Position numbers and translations under genes: made by a program. Below the pieces are notes generated by a model. The model worked only from the letters and a program-made list of their open reading frames with translations. It had not been told where the DNA came from and did not search any database. Positions 9,941-20,800 of a DNA stretch of 30,893 nt are shown one piece after another (positions within the stretch are counted from its first letter, which is position 1; every line of letters starts with the position of its first letter). The stretch spans positions 1 through 30,893 of the forward strand of contig CAYJRP010000001.1 in assembly GCA_964372675.1 (NCBI GenBank), in the 5' to 3' direction. The stretch is from Candidatus Woesearchaeota archaeon. Lineage in GTDB: Archaea; Nanobdellota; Nanobdellia; Pacearchaeales; GW2011-AR1.

Positions 9941-10741
9941 TTATTTTGTATTTTCTTTTAACCTATCTTTAACCACTTGCTCATCTTGAGGATTGGTAAG
10001 GCCAGTCCATCCATCTAACGAAGGCAAAACTCTCATTTTAATTTCTTTCTTTTCTAGCATTTTTCCTAACTCTTGTGGAAGCATACATTCAATAGTTCTA
10101 TTGGTGCGATAAGTATCTTTAAAAGATTTTAATCTAGCCTCTAATTTTTGAGTTGTTGCTTCACTTAAGCCGAATAAACTCATGCTGCAAAGCGTCTCAT
10201 GAGATAAACCCCTGGATAAGAAATTTTCATTTGTTAAACCTAATTCTTCTCTTAAAGAAGTTGCATATCCAACTCTTGTTTGAAAAATGCCTCTGTTTAC
10301 GCTGCCTCTGGATGGGATAACTTCACTTAGTTTATATCCTATAGCCACATCAGATGTGTTTGTCATTAAATATTCTTTTATCGCCATTAAAGAGCTCTTT
10401 CCGTATATGTCGTCCCCGTTGCATACAACGTAAGGGTATTTCAAAATATTTTTGGCAGAATATAAAGCATCCAACGTGCCCCAAGGACTGTCTCTAGAGT
10501 TTTGGTCTATTTCTTGTTTTGCATAAAGGACTTTTACCCCTAAAAAACTCTTCCCCATTAATTTCTTTAAAGGACGCTCGGTTTTATGCCCTACTACCAA
10601 TACTATCTCGTTAAATCCAGCTCTTATTGCCTGCGTAGCAGAATACTCGATGAGAGTCTCATCGTTTGGACCAACTTTGGCAAGTTGTTTTATTCCATTA
10701 AATCTCTTGGACAAACCTGCAGCTAGATAAACTATTTGCAT
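9941..10741 (-). CDS. Sugar-phosphate nucleotidyltransferase family protein (266 aa)
   Basis: N-terminal LAAGLSKRF...KQL motif, PWGT, and NGDDIYG. Confidence 0.9.
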   Translation of the reverse strand: MQIVYLAAGLSKRFNGIKQLAKVGPNDETLIEYSATQAIRAGFNEIVLVVGHKTERPLKKLMGKSFLGVKVLYAKQEIDQNSRDSPWGTLDALYSAKNILKYPYVVCNGDDIYGKSSLMAIKEYLMTNTSDVAIGYKLSEVIPSRGSVNRGIFQTRVGYATSLREELGLTNENFLSRGLSHETLCSMSLFGLSEATTQKLEARLKSFKDTYRTNRTIECMLPQELGKMLEKKEIKMRVLPSLDGWTGLTNPQDEQVVKDRLKENTK

Positions 10742-10792
10742 ACTATTTTCTGGTCAAGGATACTTTATAAATATAATTTTAGTTGGATAATA

Positions 10793-11767
10793 ATGATATT
10801 AGGAATAGAATGCACGGCGCATACTTTCGGAGTTGCATTGGTTGATAAAGGCAAAGTCTTGTCAAATGTAAAGGATATGTACAAGCCTGCAACTGGAGGA
10901 ATTATTCCAGTAGACAGCGCAAAGCATCATCGAGATGTCTGCCAATTCATTTACGAGGATGCTTTGAATAAAGCAGAAGTTTCTGAAAAAGATATTATTG
11001 CTATAGCTGTGTCAAATGCTCCTGGACTTGCTCCGTGCTTGCTGGCTGGGATGGAATTTGCTAAAACTAAAGCGAAACAACTGAATGTTCCACTAATTCC
11101 AGTAAATCATTGCATTGCACACTTGGAAATTGGGCAGAGTGTTGGAGCTACTGATCCTGTGCTTCTTTATGCCTCTGGCGCAAATACGCAGGTGATTGCA
11201 TACGCTGCTGGCAAATATCGTGTGTTTGGCGAGACGCTTGATTCCGGAGTTGGAAATTTTATTGATACTTTTGGAAGGCATGTTGGAATTGCTTTTCCTG
11301 CAGGCCCTGAATTGGAAAAAAAAGCTCATGGTGGAAAATATATTGAGTTGCCTTATTCAATTAAAGGCATGGATGTTAGTTTTTCTGGCATGCAGACTAA
11401 AATGAAACAACTATATGATGCACATGGTACGAGTGTTGAAGATTTGGCTTATTCAATGCAGGAAACAGCCTTTGCAATGCTTGTTGAAGCTGCTGAAAGG
11501 GCAATGGCGCACACAGGAAAGTCCGAGTTGGTGCTTGGCGGAGGCGTTGGATGTAATGCGCGTCTTCAGGAAATGTGCAGAATTATGTGTGAAGAACGCG
11601 GCGCCAAGTTTTTCTGCCCTGCTAGAGACCTGTTAACTGATAACGCCGCCATGATCGCATTTACAGGGGAACTTATGTATAATTGTGGAGATTACCCTAG
11701 GGACATCTCTAAAATAGATATTTTGCCTCGCCAACGTACTGATCAAGTAATTATAAAATATAAATAA
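10793..11767 (+). CDS. kae1: tRNA N6-threonylcarbamoyladenosine (t6A) synthesis protein Kae1/TsaD, stand-alone (324 aa; start revised to MILGIE)
   Basis: GIECTAHTFG, HCIAH metal-binding motif, SGANTQ, GETLD, GGGVGCN, TDNAAMIA; no fused Bud32 kinase domain. Confidence 0.97.
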   Translation: MILGIECTAHTFGVALVDKGKVLSNVKDMYKPATGGIIPVDSAKHHRDVCQFIYEDALNKAEVSEKDIIAIAVSNAPGLAPCLLAGMEFAKTKAKQLNVPLIPVNHCIAHLEIGQSVGATDPVLLYASGANTQVIAYAAGKYRVFGETLDSGVGNFIDTFGRHVGIAFPAGPELEKKAHGGKYIELPYSIKGMDVSFSGMQTKMKQLYDAHGTSVEDLAYSMQETAFAMLVEAAERAMAHTGKSELVLGGGVGCNARLQEMCRIMCEERGAKFFCPARDLLTDNAAMIAFTGELMYNCGDYPRDISKIDILPRQRTDQVIIKYK

Positions 11768-12777
11768 GGTTCTTTTGCCTTATTGCATTCTATCAACCTC
11801 TCCCTTTCCAGTTTTAATAAATAGTGACTTACAACTCTTTTACCCTTGCCTATAAAACTAGCTATCTCTTCTGCAGTTACCTTTTTGTTCATCTCTTTTA
11901 ATTTTTTTATATAAAATTCCCTATATGTGCCTCTGGAGATCTGGTGTCTTTTAAATTCTTTCATCATTCTTTTCCATCTATCTAACTTTTCTGAATGATG
12001 CAAGCAAAAGCCTTTCTCTTCTAACTTGTAGAAATCTTCCCATCCCGAAATATTAAGCTCCCAATCATTCTTATTTCTTCGATATTTATTGCCTATTCCA
12101 TGTTCTTTTAACAGTTTAGACCATTCTTCTAAATAGTCTTTGCTTCTCATCCTAACTCTTATTACTCTTTTTAATCCATACCAATTGATTGATCCCCCAC
12201 AGTCAATCAGAGCGCTAAAAGCGGACATGAAAAATTTTTCATTAGACCTTAATAGTTTGTGGTGGATATGCAGGTCTCTCTTGTTTCCCCCATATTTATC
12301 TAAGAAGTCTAATAGTGCTTTTATCGGAAACCTTAAGTCTTTGTACACCCAGCATTGCAAATTACCTTGACACTTAATTTGATGTTTATAAGAGCTTATT
12401 CTTAATTTGTAAATTTCATTAAGATAAAATATCTTTAATTCGTAAATTTTTTTATATGGCAGACTTATCACTGCTTTTACTTTTTTATTATCAAAAGGAC
12501 TTTTTTCTATGTGGAAATTAAGTTCTTTGTCTCCTTCTAAAATCTTTACTTTTTCTTTTACGGAATTATCATTAAGTCTTATTTTTACTAATAGCCTCTT
12601 CGATGGTGTAACCCCCAATTCTTTAACAATATCTTCTATATAATTAAGAAGCGAGAGGTTCTTATTTTGCAAGGTTAATGTGTATCTTTTAGTATTCCAA
12701 TAACCTTCAACTTTGAGAGTTTCCACTAGATAAACCGTTTTTTCGTTAATAGGGATATTTAAATGATAGGTCATCAT
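11743..12777 (-). CDS. Two-motif LAGLIDADG endonuclease-like protein with C-terminal winged HTH (344 aa)
   Basis: Motif 1 YLVETLKVEGY and motif 2 AFSALIDCGGSI, followed by 'IRVRMRSKDYLEEWSKLLKEHGI'; C-terminal VTAEEIASFIGKGKRVVSHYLLKLERERLIE. Confidence 0.85.
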   Translation of the reverse strand: MMTYHLNIPINEKTVYLVETLKVEGYWNTKRYTLTLQNKNLSLLNYIEDIVKELGVTPSKRLLVKIRLNDNSVKEKVKILEGDKELNFHIEKSPFDNKKVKAVISLPYKKIYELKIFYLNEIYKLRISSYKHQIKCQGNLQCWVYKDLRFPIKALLDFLDKYGGNKRDLHIHHKLLRSNEKFFMSAFSALIDCGGSINWYGLKRVIRVRMRSKDYLEEWSKLLKEHGIGNKYRRNKNDWELNISGWEDFYKLEEKGFCLHHSEKLDRWKRMMKEFKRHQISRGTYREFYIKKLKEMNKKVTAEEIASFIGKGKRVVSHYLLKLERERLIECNKAKEPYLYFIIT

Positions 12778-12795
12778 AGGGGTAATAGTCTAAGA

Positions 12796-12809
12796 TTAAT
12801 AAACCTTTC
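12796..12809 (-). promoter_or_regulatory. BRE/TATA promoter of the LAGLIDADG gene
   Basis: Minus strand reads GAAAGG-TTTATTAA, 18 nt upstream of ATG 12777. Confidence 0.6.
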
Positions 12810-12812
12810 TAA

Positions 12813-12896
12813 GAAAAAGTTGTGTCCAAGGATTTGGATAAGTTGGACATTGCACCCAGGGAAAGAACTGATATGGTTGATGTGACGTGGAAATAA
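12813..12896 (+). pseudogene. Orphan (displaced) kae1 3' end, 27 codons plus stop
   Basis: Translates EKVVSKDLDKLDIAPRERTDMVDVTWK*; its last 23 aa align without gaps to the last 23 aa of Kae1 (PRDISKIDILPRQRTDQVIIKYK*) with 11 identities. Confidence 0.9.
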
Positions 12897-12908
12897 GACT
12901 ATAGACGA

Positions 12909-13376
12909 TTATGCAATATTAACCTGCAATTTCTTTGAGATGTCTACACCCCATGGGATATCCAGGCTTGCAATAAGATACCATTTTACTTGGGAATATT
13001 GTCTTGAAAAGGCTTGCAAAGACTTTGCAACAGAATCAAGCATAGAATTCATTCCTCCTAAGATATTTTGAGGTATCTTTATTTGAAAGTTATAGTTATA
13101 ATCTCCATTGTAATCTTTTTCGCCATCAAGAGGTTGTTTGAAATCATAAATATAAGCTGTTCTCATTTGCTGTTGCATTGCACCAAAGTTATTTGTAGTG
13201 TTTGGCATGTTAGTTGTTCTTGTTGTTTTTTGCTGACCCACTAATCTAATTGTAACTGCTTTTGCTTTTGTTGGCTTTTTAACATTAAGGGAAATCGCAC
13301 CTTCAATAGTGTCTCCTGGGGAAAAATTGTACTTACTGATTGATATGCCTATTTTTCCTTTTCCAAAGCCGAACAT
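12909..13376 (-). CDS. Arrestin-N/SpoOM-like protein (155 aa; start revised to MFGFG)
   Basis: 'YNFSPGDTIEGAISLNVKKPTKAKAVTIRLVG', 'YNFQIKIP' and 'WYLIASLDIPWGVD' fit the arrestin-fold/SpoOM pattern. Confidence 0.7.
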   Translation of the reverse strand: MFGFGKGKIGISISKYNFSPGDTIEGAISLNVKKPTKAKAVTIRLVGQQKTTRTTNMPNTTNNFGAMQQQMRTAYIYDFKQPLDGEKDYNGDYNYNFQIKIPQNILGGMNSMLDSVAKSLQAFSRQYSQVKWYLIASLDIPWGVDISKKLQVNIA

Positions 13377-13452
13377 CTTGTTTATAAGAGATTTAGATTT
13401 ATATAACTTTCTTCGCATAATTTAAATACATATTTCTCTTTGCATCGACGCC

Positions 13453-15216
13453 ATGGGGAGATTAAAAGAGGTGTTTAAAATAGATGTGCGAGCTCTTGCT
13501 TTTTTTAGGGTTTGCCTTGCACTGATTATAATTTTCGATTTGATTATTAGATCTACTTCTTTGGTTGCACATTATACGGACTTAGGAACAATGCCTCGCT
13601 CTTTAGTTAATGAGAAGTTCGGGCTTTTAAATTGGGTTTCAGTTCACATGCTTTCAGGAAGCGCTGGCTTTCAAGTGTTTTTGTTTATTCTTGCAGGCAT
13701 ATTTGCTTTAATGTTGCTAGTCGGCTACAGAACAAAACTATCTACTATTGCATCTTGGTTTTTGCTTATTTCATTGCAGTCAAGAAACCCAATGGTTTTG
13801 CAAGGTGGAGATATTATGCTCAGGATGTTGGTGTTTTGGGCAATGTTTTTACCTCTTGGACTAAAATACTCGATTGACGAGGCTAAAAATATTAGAAATG
13901 GAATAGAAACTAATCGAAAGAGTATTTTGTCTTTTGGCACTGTAGGAATATTAATGCAGGTTGCTTCAGTTTACTTTTTTTCGGCACTTTTGAAAACTGG
14001 AAATGAATGGTATCCGAATGGGACTGCACTTTATTATGCGTTAAGCATTGACCAGTTTGCGACTTATGCTGGAAAGTTTCTTTTAGGGTTTCATAGTTTA
14101 CTAGGGCCTTTAACTTATTTTGTTTACTTCTTAGAGTTAATTGGCCCTCTTTTACTTTTTATTCCATTCTTCTTTCCTTATTTAAGGACCATTATGGCTT
14201 TTCTGTTCTTCGCTCTCACTCTTGGAATGGGTTTATCTCTTAACCTTGGGCCGTTTCCATTTATAGGAGCTGCAGGATTTATTTTATTTTTACCTAGTTG
14301 GTTCTGGGATAAGGTGCAAGAGCTGTTCTACAGAAAAGAAAATGAAAGACTTAGAGTTTATTATGACGGAGAATGCGGAACATGCAGATTCTCTATTGCG
14401 TTGCTTAGGGTTTTCCTTATGCTGCCTAAGAGTGCATTTTTGCCTGCGCAAAGCAGGAAAGATATACTTGGATTAATGAATAAAAATAATTCATGGGTTG
14501 TTGACTTCGAAGGAAGAAAATATTTTCGCTTTGATGCTTTCAAACCAGTTTTGTCTGCTTCGCCATTGTTTTGGCCGCTTTCATATATCATTTCTATTTC
14601 CTGGATGCGCAAAATTGGAAACTGGTTTTACAGAGCTTTTGCTAGAAGGAGAAAGCACGTTTGTGAAATTCCTGAGATTAAACAAGAGAGAGTTAATAGA
14701 AAGAAGATATTGTTTGCAACAGGAAACATTCTAGCTGCTTTTTTCATCATTTTTATAATTGCTTGGAACGTGCAATCTCTTGGGAAAAATAATGCTGTGC
14801 CTAATGGAATTGAATTTATTGCGCATAAATTGCGCATTGACCAGTATTGGAATATGTTTTCTCCTTTTCCTTTGAAGGACGACGGGTGGTATGTTATCGA
14901 CGCTTCTCTTGCTAATGGAAAACATATTGATTTACTACGTGATGGGAAACCTGTTGACTTTGAGAAGCCTTCGCATGTTGCTTACTTGTACAAGCATGAA
15001 CGCTGGAGAAAATATTTAATGAATTTATGGAGCAGGGATAATTCTGTTTATCGGCCTTATTACCTGCAATACTTATGCTATGACTGGAATAAAAACCATG
15101 AAGCCAATGAAAAACTGAAAGAAATAAATATGTACTTCATGCTTGAATTTACTCTGCCTGATTATCAGAAACCAAACATAGAGAAGATACTGCTTGGCCA
15201 GCAAGAATGCTTTTAG
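13453..15216 (+). CDS. HTTM-domain membrane protein with an inserted DCC1-like (DUF393) thiol-disulfide domain (587 aa)
   Basis: Multi-TM N-half with 'DVRALAFFRV', 'RNPMVLQGGD' and 'YFFSALLK...W.PNGTALYYAL'; 'VYYDGECGTC' DxxCxxC motif; C-terminal 'DQYWNMFSPFP'. Confidence 0.85.
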   Translation: MGRLKEVFKIDVRALAFFRVCLALIIIFDLIIRSTSLVAHYTDLGTMPRSLVNEKFGLLNWVSVHMLSGSAGFQVFLFILAGIFALMLLVGYRTKLSTIASWFLLISLQSRNPMVLQGGDIMLRMLVFWAMFLPLGLKYSIDEAKNIRNGIETNRKSILSFGTVGILMQVASVYFFSALLKTGNEWYPNGTALYYALSIDQFATYAGKFLLGFHSLLGPLTYFVYFLELIGPLLLFIPFFFPYLRTIMAFLFFALTLGMGLSLNLGPFPFIGAAGFILFLPSWFWDKVQELFYRKENERLRVYYDGECGTCRFSIALLRVFLMLPKSAFLPAQSRKDILGLMNKNNSWVVDFEGRKYFRFDAFKPVLSASPLFWPLSYIISISWMRKIGNWFYRAFARRRKHVCEIPEIKQERVNRKKILFATGNILAAFFIIFIIAWNVQSLGKNNAVPNGIEFIAHKLRIDQYWNMFSPFPLKDDGWYVIDASLANGKHIDLLRDGKPVDFEKPSHVAYLYKHERWRKYLMNLWSRDNSVYRPYYLQYLCYDWNKNHEANEKLKEINMYFMLEFTLPDYQKPNIEKILLGQQECF

Positions 15217-17800: not shown

Positions 17801-20800
17801 ATGTCAGATAAAAAGGATTATTCAGCAGAGAAAATCAAGGTTCTCGAGGGTTTAGAAGGAGTAAGGATGCGCCCTGCAATGTATCTGGGTAGCACAAGCA
17901 AAACAGGCCTGCATCATTTAGTTTACGAAGTTCTTGACAACTCTGTTGATGAAGCAATGGCAGGACATTGTGATACTATTGTTGTTGTTTTGAATAAGGA
18001 CGGAAGTGTTACTGTTACTGATAATGGCAGGGGAATTCCTGTTGATATGCATCCTGTTTACAAAGTGCCTGCTTTAGAAGTTGTTATAACTAAGCTGCAT
18101 GCTGGGGGAAAGTTTGACAAGCAAAGCTACAAAATTTCTGGAGGACTGCATGGCGTTGGCATTAGCGTTGTTGCTGCTTTGTCCAAGAACATGAAAGTGC
18201 GTGTCAAAAGAGATGGAAAAATTTACCAGCAAGAATACAAAATAGGGAAGCCCTCTTACGCTGTAAAAGTTGTCGGAGAAACAAAAGGGAAGGACGATAC
18301 TGGCACTGAAGTTATCTTTATGCCGGACGACACCATATTTTCGGCAACCAAGTTTGATTTTTCTGTTTTGGAAACAAGATTTAGAGAAGTAGCATTTCTC
18401 AACAAGGGGCTTAAAATTGTTTTGGAAGAGGAAGAAGGAAAAAAAGAAGTCTTCCATTATGATGGTGGAATAATAGAGTTTGTAAAGTGGGTAAATGAGA
18501 ACAAAGAGCCGATTCATGCTAAACCGATTTATTTCTCTAAGGAAGATTCAGGCGTGGTTGTTGAAAGTGCTGTCCAATATAACGCAGGATATCAGGAAAA
18601 TGTTTTAAGTTTTGTAAATACTATTAATACAATTGAGGGAGGAACTCATGTTGTTGGATTTAAGACAGCTTTGACAAGAGCAATAAATGATTATGCCAAT
18701 AAAAGCAAACTGCTTAAGGATGGAAATGTTACTGGAGACGATGTTCGCGAGGGGCTAACGGCTATTATTTCTATAAAAGTGCCAGAGCCGCAATTTGAGG
18801 GTCAGACAAAGACAAAGTTGGGAAATAGTGAAGTAAAAGGTATTGTTGATAGTGTTGCTATGGTTGCACTAACTCAATTCTTTGAAGAAAATCCTGCAGT
18901 AGCAAGAAGAGTTGTTGAAAAAGCCCTTGAAGCGCAAAAAGCAAGGAACGCCGCCAAGAAAGCCAAGGAGCTTGTTAGAAGAAAAAATGCTTTTTCTGTT
19001 GGGGGTCTTCCTGGAAAACTCGCTGATTGCTCTAGCAATAAGATGGAGGAATGCGAGATATTTATTGTGGAAGGCGATTCAGCCGCTGGTTGTTTTTCTG
19101 GGGACACTGAAGTAGCTTTAACTGATGGTAGAAATGTTTCCTTTAAGCAATTAGTTAGTGAAGCAACCCACGGAAAAAAACATTTTTGTTATACTATTAA
19201 AGAAAATGGAAGCATTGGCATAGAAGAGATAATTAGTCCAAGAGTTACAAAGAAAGATGCAGAAGTTATTAAAATTATTTTAGATAATGGAAAGGAAATT
19301 ATTTGCACTCCAGACCATAAGTTTATGCTTCGGGATGGAAGCTATAGACAAGCTAAAGACCTAACTAATGATGATTCTTTAATGCCGCTCCATAAAAGAA
19401 TTTCTAAGATTGGAGGAAGAATTACAATAGATGGTTATGAGATGGTTTGGGATCAAAAGAAGAACTGGATATTTACACATATGCTTGCTGATGAATATAA
19501 TCTTCAAAATAGGGTATATCTAAAAGAACAAGGCGATACAAGGCACCATATTGACTTCAATAAAAGAAATAATAATCCTTCTAATATCATTAGGTTATCA
19601 AAAGAAGATCACCTTATATTTAACACACAGAATCTGTCTAAAACCTTGCATAGTCCAGAGATGAAGAAAAAAGCTGCCGAAGCTCATAAAACTACAGAGT
19701 ATAGACAAAAAATGAGCAATTGGGCTAAAAGACCAGAAGTAAAGGCTCTTATGAGTGAAAACTCTAAAAAATTGTGGCAAGACAATGAATACAAGAGTTA
19801 TATGGTTGAGAAGTTTCTTGAGTTCTATAATACTAACGAGGATTATAGAAATAAAAATAATGCTCTCTTAAATAAAAATCAGCAAGAGTATTGGGCAAAT
19901 CCAGAACATAGAAAAAAAGCATCTGAAAAAGTTAACAAGTTTTTTGAAGAAAATCCAGACGCTAAACAATATCTTTCAGAATTGTCTAAAGAGCAGTGGA
20001 AAGATGATGCGCTAATAATCTGGAGAAGGCAGAAAACGAGGGAACAATGGACTCCAGAATTCAGAAATCAGAGAAAAGAGGCTTATAATAAGACATATTA
20101 TACTGAAACAATAAAGTTTATGAAGAGGATTTTGGAGGAAGGAGGAGATGTCTCTAAGTTTGATGATTTGAGAGTTAAAAGCAAAAACAAGAACTTATTG
20201 CGCTCAGATACGTTCTGTTCAAGATTTTTTGATAATAATAAGGAAAGAATGCTTGAAGCTGTAAATAATTATAACCACAAAATAAAGAGCATCGAATTCT
20301 TAAATAATAAAATTGATGTTTACGATATTGAAGTCCCCGGAACGCATAATTTTGCTTTAGCCTCCGGCATTTTTGTGCATAATAGTAGCAAACAAGGCAG
20401 AAATAAAAACTTTCAGGCGATATTGCCTTTGAAAGGCAAAATACTGAATGTTGAGAAAGCTCCACCAATTAAAGTCTTGTCAAATGAAGAAATTGCCAAT
20501 TTAATTACTGCAATTGGTACAGGTATCACGGACCAATTTGACCATGAGAGGTTAAGATACGGCAAGATAATTATTATGACCGATGCTGATGTCGACGGGG
20601 CGCACATTAGAACATTGTTGCTGACTTTTTTCTTTAGATTCATGAATAAATTAATTGAAAACGGAAATATCTACATTGCTGTTTCTCCTTTGTTTAGGGT
20701 TAGAAAGCGCGGCGACCATTATGTTTATTCTGATAAAGAACTTAAGTCTCTTGTCGCTAAATTGGGCGGAAATGTCGATGTGCAGAGGTTTAAGGGCCTT

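Follow-up and report, generated by a model that had tools for sequence, protein, structure and literature searches.

A probable mobile homing-endonuclease cassette with a replacement gene end in archaeal kae1

How does an essential gene come to possess two ends? The question is posed by a stretch of 30,893 nucleotides from a Candidatus Woesearchaeota archaeon (contig CAYJRP010000001.1; hereafter the window), in which kae1, the gene for the N6-threonylcarbamoyladenosine (t6A) synthase Kae1, is followed, beyond an antisense gene for a LAGLIDADG homing endonuclease, by a fragment that reads as a second Kae1 C-terminus. The original prediction for this locus, made from its sequence, held that the downstream fragment is the native end of the gene, displaced when a cassette of replacement tail, endonuclease gene and promoter invaded kae1 and rescued it with neither intron nor intein. 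Our findings make it very probable that the region is indeed a mobile homing-endonuclease cassette, of the type described as mobile open reading frames (mORFs), which carries a replacement gene end and resides in the 3' part of essential kae1.

The two C-termini of kae1

The kae1 gene occupies positions 10793-11767 on the plus strand, and its product gives a full-length match to the Pfam family TsaD (E 1e-75). Its reading frame is open over 324 codons and ends ...GDYPRDISKIDILPRQRTDQVIIKYK, with the stop codon at 11765-11767. It is the single kae1 match in the source genome, which is 80% complete, and the encoded protein is 73-82% identical to the nearest Kae1 proteins. The second, stranded tail, EKVVSKDLDKLDIAPRERTDMVDVTWK, lies at 12813-12896 on the same strand; it comprises 27 codons and a stop (12894-12896) and has no start codon. 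In an ungapped alignment this stranded tail and the fused tail of the intact gene share 11 of 23 residues, and G or C accounts for 34 of the 84 nucleotides of the stranded copy and for 27 of the last 84 of kae1. All of these coordinates, peptides, identities and base counts had been given in the original prediction and were reproduced exactly on recomputation; the one correction, a trivial one, is that the fragment said to be in-frame lies in a different absolute frame (12813 mod 3 = 0; 10793 mod 3 = 2).

A profile hidden Markov model (HMM) of native tails, built from the last 30 Kae1 residues of 28 relatives lacking the endonuclease, was run on the 1159 six-frame fragments of the window. The stranded fragment matched it with E 3.5e-14 (48.7 bits) and the fused tail with E 2.1e-8 (30.3 bits), and no other fragment among the 1159 scored better than E 2.5. 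Given these values and the want of any competing fragment, the likeness of the stranded fragment to Kae1 is not a matter of chance. A position-specific scoring matrix (PSSM) classifier, evaluated by leave-one-out on 23 fused tails, 39 stranded tails and the tails of the 28 endonuclease-less relatives, called every fused tail cassette-like (23/23) and every stranded tail (39/39) and endonuclease-less tail (28/28) native-like. For the window, its log-odds were -7.3 for the fused tail and +26.9 towards native for the stranded one. Both measures bear out the proposal that the stranded tail is the more native-like of the two.

The nearest endonuclease-less relative (P0096/L132), whose Kae1 is 78% identical to that of the window, provides an independent view of the same junctions. 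Its DNA aligns to the window at 10789-11684 (73.8%) and again at 12837-12895 (BLASTN, 74.6% over 59 nt), the two matches being separated by 23 nt in L132 and by 1152 nt in the window. Hence an empty allele in which the gene body reads directly into a tail of the stranded type, as had been anticipated, is found, colinear in its DNA with both parts of the window. When the L132 kae1 was compared by BLASTN, the stranded copy alone was detected and the fused tail was not; identity to the L132 native tail is 50/84 nt for the stranded copy and 43/84 for the fused tail. The stranded tail bears RERTDM, a lineage mark of same-genus Kae1 tails, whereas the fused tail bears the cassette marks PRQRTD and IKYK. 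The signature PRQRTD..IKY[KR] is common to 22 other loci, and 70 of the 84 nt of the fused tail are identical in that of locus L130; across the family, stranded tails are native-looking and close with V.W[KR] before the stop. These comparisons support the stranded copy as the native tail and the fused tail as the insert. The kae1 gene of the window is a chimera of a native body and a cassette-borne C-terminus. Thus the proposed duplication of the C-terminus stands, but the proposed local 'recoding' does not: the fused tail is a cassette-borne tail common to the whole element family.

Architecture, recurrence and mobility of the cassette

Between the two tails, at 11743-12777 on the minus strand, lies a gene for a free-standing LAGLIDADG homing endonuclease of 344 aa, recognised by a Pfam match (LAGLIDADG_3, E 1e-8), by its fold and by its family alignment. 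The AlphaFold model (predicted local distance difference test score 89) comprises two LAGLIDADG domains and a C-terminal winged helix of three helices and two strands (approximately residues 285-342). The LAGLIDADG helices span residues 12-24 and 180-194 and a beta sheet follows each, giving the monomeric two-domain fold; the top Foldseek matches are I-Tsp061I (E 1e-6), WhiA, PI-SceI and I-DmoI, and I-AniI and TliVMA are matched too. Motif 1, LKVEG, contains Glu24 (codon 12706-12708), and motif 2, LIDCGG, has Gly194 (codon 12196-12198) at the position of the family's catalytic Glu. Family-wide, the motif 1 acid is Glu or Asp in 109 of 110 scorable sequences and the motif 2 acid is Glu in 112 of 115; Gly occupies the latter position in three members, the protein of the window among them, in agreement with a separate observation of the original prediction.

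The endonuclease gene converges on kae1, and the two genes share their ends. In the core clade, defined by endonucleases at least 50% identical and comprising 25 loci with the window included, kae1 is likewise a full-length open reading frame (ORF), and the tail-to-tail overlap amounts to 37 nt in 17 loci, 25 nt in six and 14 nt in two. The 25 nt of the window (11743-11767, both strands) encode (D)QVIIKYK and the stop of Kae1 on the plus strand and (P)YLYFIIT and the stop of the endonuclease on the minus strand. In the 23 core loci with an overlap of 25 or 37 nt, the fused Kae1 tail reads ...PRQRTD[DEQ]VEIKY[KR] up to its stop. Tyr340 of the endonuclease is invariant in the family alignment and, with the conserved YLYF, is the antisense of the Kae1 K-Y-K-stop; it is because of this antisense overlap that the near-universal Trp of Kae1 is replaced by Tyr in the fused tail. 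Moreover, a single Kae1 residue after RTD switches the endonuclease stop throughout the family. Gln (CAA) at this position yields TGA in antisense, so that the endonuclease ends ...FIST and the overlap is 25 nt; Asp or Glu extends the endonuclease to ...FISTSSVR and the overlap to 37 nt.

The insertion point falls in the codons of a conserved DN[GA][AG]MIA motif, DNAAMIA in the window (11639-11659, plus strand), where it was mapped from 24 stranded copies. In the element family the stranded copy starts at (N)GAMIA, directly after the right-end block of the cassette, and therefore the canonical cassette has entered the gene where the DN codons meet the GA codons. In the window the canonical cassette tail accordingly starts with the GAMIA codons at 11645; the minimal extent of the replacement tail, CGDYPRDISKIDILPRQRTDQVIIKYK and its stop, is 11684-11767 on the plus strand, as colinearity with L132 DNA ends at 11684. 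The right end (12778-12812, minus strand) is recognised by homology to a conserved block of approximately 30 nt that separates the endonuclease ATG from the stranded tail in 24 loci. This block contains TTTAAATA some 20-30 nt upstream of the ATG, a position that fits an archaeal TATA box of a leaderless mRNA and thus a putative promoter. The window has the TATA-like box TTTATTAA on the minus strand at 12796-12803, 19-26 nt upstream of the endonuclease ATG, homologous to the ...TTTAAATA... block of the other cassettes.

From these junctions the canonical cassette has three parts: a foreign Kae1 C-terminus of approximately 45 codons, from the GAMIA codons to the stop; the antisense gene for an endonuclease with LAGLIDADG domains and winged helix-turn-helix (HTH), the last 25-37 nt of which are the reverse complement of the tail's last codons; and approximately 30 nt of predicted promoter with its TATA box. 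A scan of positions 10500-13600 against Rfam at E<=1 gave zero matches and hence no intron-like RNA. Since there is no such match, the endonuclease gene runs antisense and an ordinary stop within the overlap terminates kae1, no splicing is involved, and the element does not belong with the inteins or with group I, group II or bulge-helix-bulge introns. The proposed composition without intron or intein thus holds well beyond the window, with the stranded tail lying beyond the endonuclease start in 24 of the 25 core loci.

Homologues of the endonuclease outside the window fall into 92 clusters at E <= 0.001, annotated in Pacearchaeota and Nanoarchaeota, and for most of them the length is 340-350 aa and the identity 35-60%. 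Among 400 genomes of the same order, five possess a full-length homologue and one (L037) a C-terminal remnant. The endonuclease is absent from all 12 same-genus genomes within the 400, and the same-genus kae1 loci that were fetched lack it too. All five full-length homologues in the order converge on the kae1 3' end and have a second Kae1 tail beyond the start of the gene. Scans of genome and metagenome collections added 78 loci, and kae1 sequence adjoins the endonuclease in 76 of these; the remaining two lie on contigs of less than 1.5 kb. Both genes are complete in at least 41 distinct loci, which confirms the expectation that further cassettes would occur at the kae1 3' end in DPANN archaea. 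Host names in the records include Pacearchaeota, Woesearchaeota, Nanoarchaeota, Iainarchaeota and Aenigmatarchaeota. Distant clades (35-45% identity) are also found at the kae1 end, convergent or co-directional with the gene, and in three of their loci (L113, L120, L066) a second tail again lies beyond the endonuclease start.

Some variation in this arrangement may be recorded here. In the co-directional distant members L050/L051 (1866-4089), L104, L067 and L108, a short second Kae1 tail comes right after the endonuclease stop; identity is approximately 36-44% in L050/L051, L104 and L108 and 29% in L067. At L111, L114 and L068 the start of the endonuclease gene lies no more than a few nucleotides from the kae1 end, which would allow translational coupling.

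Does the endonuclease descend with its host or move between hosts? Trees of the endonuclease and of the Kae1 body for 25 loci each reject the topology of the other (approximately unbiased (AU) test, p 4e-47 and 2e-102), and incongruence of this strength points to horizontal movement. In one well-supported conflict, L083 and L032 have Kae1 bodies that are 92% identical and endonucleases that are 69% identical and belong to different clades. Conversely, the endonucleases of L101 and L102 are sisters, 83% identical, although their hosts are not. Between loci, the ratio of nonsynonymous to synonymous substitution (dN/dS) of full-length stranded tails was 0.18 and equalled that of the functional fused tails, a figure for which intact copies alone were chosen and in which synonymous sites are near saturation (77 of 190 pairs unsaturated). 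It suggests that most of the divergence arose while the tails were in use and that the insertions are recent relative to host divergence.

Stages of decay are also evident. Stranded copies may be truncated or mutated, that of the window included, which relative to canonical stranded copies has lost approximately 14 upstream codons (the GAMIA...G.K part) and with them the right half of the presumed target. At L037 the endonuclease is cut down to its C-terminal 103 codons beside a cassette-type kae1 tail, and the stranded tail is absent. At L134 the endonuclease is fully lost, leaving a Y-type fused tail and a stranded remnant some 45 nt downstream. At L133 (3512-4149), where the fused tail is of the Y type and the stranded tail (VDISP*ERTDDVVVSWR) has decayed, a VapB/PemK toxin-antitoxin pair sits exactly between the two; one selfish module has here apparently taken the place of another. 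The original prediction would have been at odds with endonuclease-less relatives that keep both tails. Such relatives exist in L134 and L133, but because their fused tails are of the cassette (Y) type we read them as derivatives that have lost the endonuclease. Patchy occurrence at one fixed site, a phylogeny incongruent with that of the host and a series of decay stages are together what characterises a mobile element.

The copy in the window is probably an old or decaying, late-stage resident, given Gly194, the deleted target half of its stranded tail and an ancestry shared with L130. Its endonuclease is probably no longer a double-strand cutter: with Gly in place of the motif 2 Glu and half of the target deleted from the stranded tail, it would most likely be a nickase or inactive, although its ORF is intact.

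Target, immunity and alternative explanations

How might such an element spread, and how would an occupied allele escape its own enzyme? We compared the junction region in 28 endonuclease-less alleles, 24 stranded copies and 25 fused copies, numbering from the first base of the Asp codon. Fused copies differ most from native and stranded ones at -3/-2, +5, +11 and +17. At -3/-2 the Val codon before Asp-Asn is replaced by Thr, Gln or Leu in fused copies, or alternatively Asn is replaced by Gln. At +5 fused copies have AAC for AAT. Position +11, which closes the second Gly/Ala codon that follows Asn, is mostly A in native and stranded copies and T in fused ones, and at +17 the Ile codon ATT gives way to ATA or ATC. 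In genomes holding both copies, ATT is present in the stranded but not in the fused copy in 14 of 17. In the set of the 119 closest Kae1 proteins, VDN is present in 84 of the 103 whose tails are W-type and in two of the 12 whose tails are Y-type; the empty L132 reads LVDN and the occupied window and L130 read LTDN. These differences suggest a target of approximately 21-22 bp, a length that matches LAGLIDADG sites, with its centre at the insertion point DN/GAMIA and with five distinguishing positions. A T/L difference in ...IA[YF][TL]GE... was also considered as an immunity marker and was ruled out by the opposite pattern in L094 and L095.

We propose that the endonuclease cuts cassette-less kae1 alleles at approximately 22 bp across the active-site motif codons (V)DN/GAMIA, and that repair would then copy the cassette from the donor, with homology provided on the left by the kae1 body and on the right by the native tail. 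The resulting allele would be functional because the cassette brings an in-frame end, and it would be protected by a few junction substitutions (Val to Thr, Gln or Leu, or Asn to Gln, and synonymous changes such as ATT to ATA or ATC). The displaced native tail, having no start codon, would decay.

Engineered home-and-rescue or cleave-and-rescue drives break an essential gene and bring along a cleavage-resistant copy of the part that is cut; when repair fails the cell dies, and the alleles that remain are either intact or bear the drive. It is tempting to speculate that the endonuclease family is, across DPANN archaea, an active natural drive of this kind: it would cut the Kae1 active-site codons of naive alleles, render imprecise repair lethal and put a resistant end in place; the antisense dual coding would be a lock that makes clean loss of the selfish gene costly, and the stranded tail would be right arm and promoter platform in one. 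We put this forward as a tentative extension, rather doubtful as it stands. Compared with the engineered drives, the nuclease is natural and protein-guided and the hosts are haploid or oligoploid archaea; the analogy is one of logic and not of homology.

Several observations weigh against a mobile cassette, or at least temper it. No contig or read joint skipping the cassette was seen in four sequencing runs, and thus no empty allele there; likewise, a scan of viral contigs returned no relatives of the endonuclease family and hence no viral carrier for DNA exchange between DPANN cells. Endonuclease and host identities are moderately correlated (Spearman 0.46-0.49), from which it follows that much of the history has been vertical. 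Stranded-tail similarity tracks neither host (Mantel p 0.23) nor endonuclease (p 0.47) over approximately 21 aligned residues, too few for such a test, and the comparison of fused tails, too short for tree resolution, with the endonuclease gave rho 0.23 (p 0.06). Most of the PSSM signal lies in the six C-terminal residues, on which the overlap imposes constraints; in a 13-position test without them only 24 of 39 stranded tails were native, so that the signal in the upstream part of the tail is modest. The Val/Thr and ATT/ATA associations are phylogenetically non-independent and have exceptions, as in the two of 12 Y-type tails that keep VDN. The missing motif 2 acid makes current mobility of the copy in the window doubtful. 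Finally, the position of cleavage, the role of the immunity substitutions, the homing process and promoter function are inferred by comparing sequences; demonstrated are the architecture and its recurrence, which of the tails is native, the fold, the patchy occurrence and the conflict between the trees.

Could the gene instead encode a domesticated regulator? WhiA is a bacterial transcription factor that, like the protein studied here, has two LAGLIDADG domains and a C-terminal HTH; its catalytic acids are lost, and in Gram-positive bacteria it is found almost everywhere and descends vertically. As the second-best Foldseek match it invites the idea of a WhiA-like LAGLIDADG-HTH regulator that has ceased to be a mobile endonuclease, or never was one, descends vertically beside kae1 and perhaps controls kae1 or itself, the duplicated tail being an old scar. 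Such a role would suit a 344-aa ORF that has stayed intact in the window with Gly at the motif 2 Glu. The nearest endonuclease-bearing relative (P0095/L130), with a Kae1 82% identical, a fused tail of the same type and an endonuclease C-terminus identical at 67 of 91 residues (74%), carries the same cassette, which suggests long vertical residence, and the partial correlation of endonuclease and host identities points the same way. We consider a regulator unlikely nonetheless. Unlike WhiA, the family retains both catalytic acids in approximately 97% of its members and is patchily distributed (6/400 genomes of the order, 0/12 of the genus); the AU test rejects co-phylogeny with Kae1, and the remnants and deletions show that the gene is dispensable.

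A tandem duplication of the kae1 3' end might alternatively have come first, with the endonuclease landing later between two host-derived copies, of which the proximal one then adapted to the overlap; no foreign tail would be needed. The concentration of most of the cassette-versus-native signal in the six residues forced by the antisense overlap would fit this. Fused-tail similarity also tracks the host body, if weakly (Mantel rho 0.29, p 0.008), and the AMIAFTGEL stretch of the window looks host-like. Against this, the same 25- or 37-nt overlap and the same upstream features (F[NK]N.[DE][YF]..., PRQRTD) are found in hosts of different genera whose stranded tails differ, and because they recur in this way transfer as a unit is far more parsimonious than re-evolution at each insertion. 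Tree incongruence shows the endonuclease moving between host lineages, and the endonuclease-less alleles of 28 relatives have one tail only. An origin by prior duplication is thus very unlikely.

An assembly chimera, or a chance likeness of the stranded fragment to Kae1, is effectively refuted already: the source genome is metagenome-assembled (0.8 Mb, 103 contigs) and the fragment just 27 codons long, but both junctions are spanned by Logan contigs from four runs, each run having been assembled on its own (one contig of 7016 nt covers 11615-13500 of the window with zero differences), settling the mis-assembly that the original prediction wished to see excluded, and more than 40 independent assemblies have the same architecture, quite apart from the HMM match at E 3.5e-14.

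Known systems and the surrounding genes

A homing-endonuclease cassette that replaces the end of its host gene has to be set against three groups of known elements. The endonuclease has the monomeric two-domain fold (Foldseek) of the archaeal intron and intein LAGLIDADG enzymes of the I-DmoI, I-Tsp061I and PI-PfuI type. Those enzymes prefer highly conserved sites of essential genes. Unlike them, the kae1 cassette would owe its neutrality to a replacement tail and not to a splicing element.

The closest likeness is to the mORFs of fungal mitochondria, the splicing-free precedent cited in the original prediction and by now well described (PMC3630166). They were first found in atp6 of Allomyces macrogynus and then in atp6, atp9, cox2 and nad3 of Glomus sp. 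and in Rhizopus and Mortierella (PMC3630166); in Endoconidiophora, C-terminal duplications of atp6 and cob lie beside endonuclease ORFs (PMC6279837). In both settings an endonuclease ORF (LAGLIDADG or GIY-YIG in mORFs) resides in the 3' part of an essential gene, and the inserted C-terminus restores the reading frame with no need of an intron or intein. The native C*-terminus of mORF-bearing genes is located approximately 1 kb downstream and is closer to the tails of relatives than is the inserted one (PMC3630166); the displaced tail of the window, beyond the endonuclease ORF, is likewise nearer to relatives' tails. Spread by cleavage of ORF-less alleles is inferred or has been shown for the fungal elements, and homing of the kae1 cassette would follow the same route, as far as its sequence allows one to judge.

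The differences are no less instructive. The host replicon is an archaeal chromosome rather than that of an organelle, and the target is kae1 at its DNGAMIA active-site codons. Most fungal mORFs continue the phase of the host gene or follow it downstream, whereas the core-clade endonuclease is antisense, has a predicted TATA-type promoter of its own and shares 14-37 nt of dual coding with its host gene. The kae1-cassette endonuclease has an additional C-terminal winged helix, and in several DPANN phyla a single endonuclease family is dedicated to this one gene. A description of such an element in archaea was not known to the original prediction, and none was found in our literature search, in which subscription journals are incompletely covered.

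Free-standing phage endonucleases that practise 'intronless homing', such as SegF and SegG of T4 and MobE (PMC2790892), offer a further parallel. Here too a free-standing endonuclease gene lies beside its target and protection comes from polymorphism of the site rather than from its disruption; spread proceeds via double-strand-break repair with co-conversion of flanking markers (PMC2790892). Unlike the kae1 cassette, these elements are intergenic, neither duplicate nor replace a gene end, encode GIY-YIG or HNH enzymes and have co-infecting phage genomes as hosts (PMC2790892).

The splicing-free, replacement-end lifestyle is thus not peculiar to fungal mitochondria; on archaeal chromosomes it is practised by a large family dedicated to one universal gene. 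For the design of rescue-type gene drives the family is a natural experiment, with a target in active-site codons, immunity probably conferred by a handful of substitutions, and drive and rescue parts that overlap. For annotation it is a warning: the C-termini of DPANN Kae1 proteins can be chimeric, and small 'hypothetical' ORFs downstream can be stranded gene ends. The loci also furnish a dated decay series for the homing-endonuclease life cycle in DPANN archaea, and the presumed site of approximately 22 bp in kae1 lends itself to a concrete and cheap biochemical test by cleavage.

Downstream of the cassette, between the stranded tail and a DCC1-like gene, the window contains a gene for an arrestin-fold protein of 169 aa (12909-13418, minus strand; Pfam Arrestin_N E 5e-12, Arrestin_C E 3e-6). 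Membership of this gene in the cassette was considered and ruled out, as it is situated past the stranded tail, towards which it converges, and the canonical cassette extends no further than the promoter block. The expectation that empty alleles would abut the arrestin-like gene was not upheld: in five same-genus genomes kae1 adjoins the DCC1-like gene directly, and the fetched loci show no arrestin-like gene; in L132 the neighbours are different again. In run X4, a Logan contig agrees with the window as far as 12896, where the stop codon of the stranded tail ends, and then continues with 255 nt of unrelated sequence (TTAATAATATTTAAATAG...). This contig may represent a related strain with another gene 3' of kae1, possibly an empty allele.

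Other endonuclease-bearing elements are found nearby. In several relatives, gyrB with an intein and LAGLIDADG Pfam matches lies within a few kb of the kae1 locus (L046/L047:1-1618; L134:5340-5972), and in the window positions 19091-20383 were assigned to a GyrB intein in the original prediction. Selfish endonucleases may be dense in the conserved neighbourhood of kae1, L7Ae, S28e, L24e and gyrB. Lastly, in two genomes the match to kae1 itself is in two pieces with a short gap and overlapping query residues (1-140 and 129-324 in G016:C37:15944-16972; 2-120 and 107-324 in G021:C64:5422-6522), which could reflect a small insertion, a mini-intron or a frameshift.

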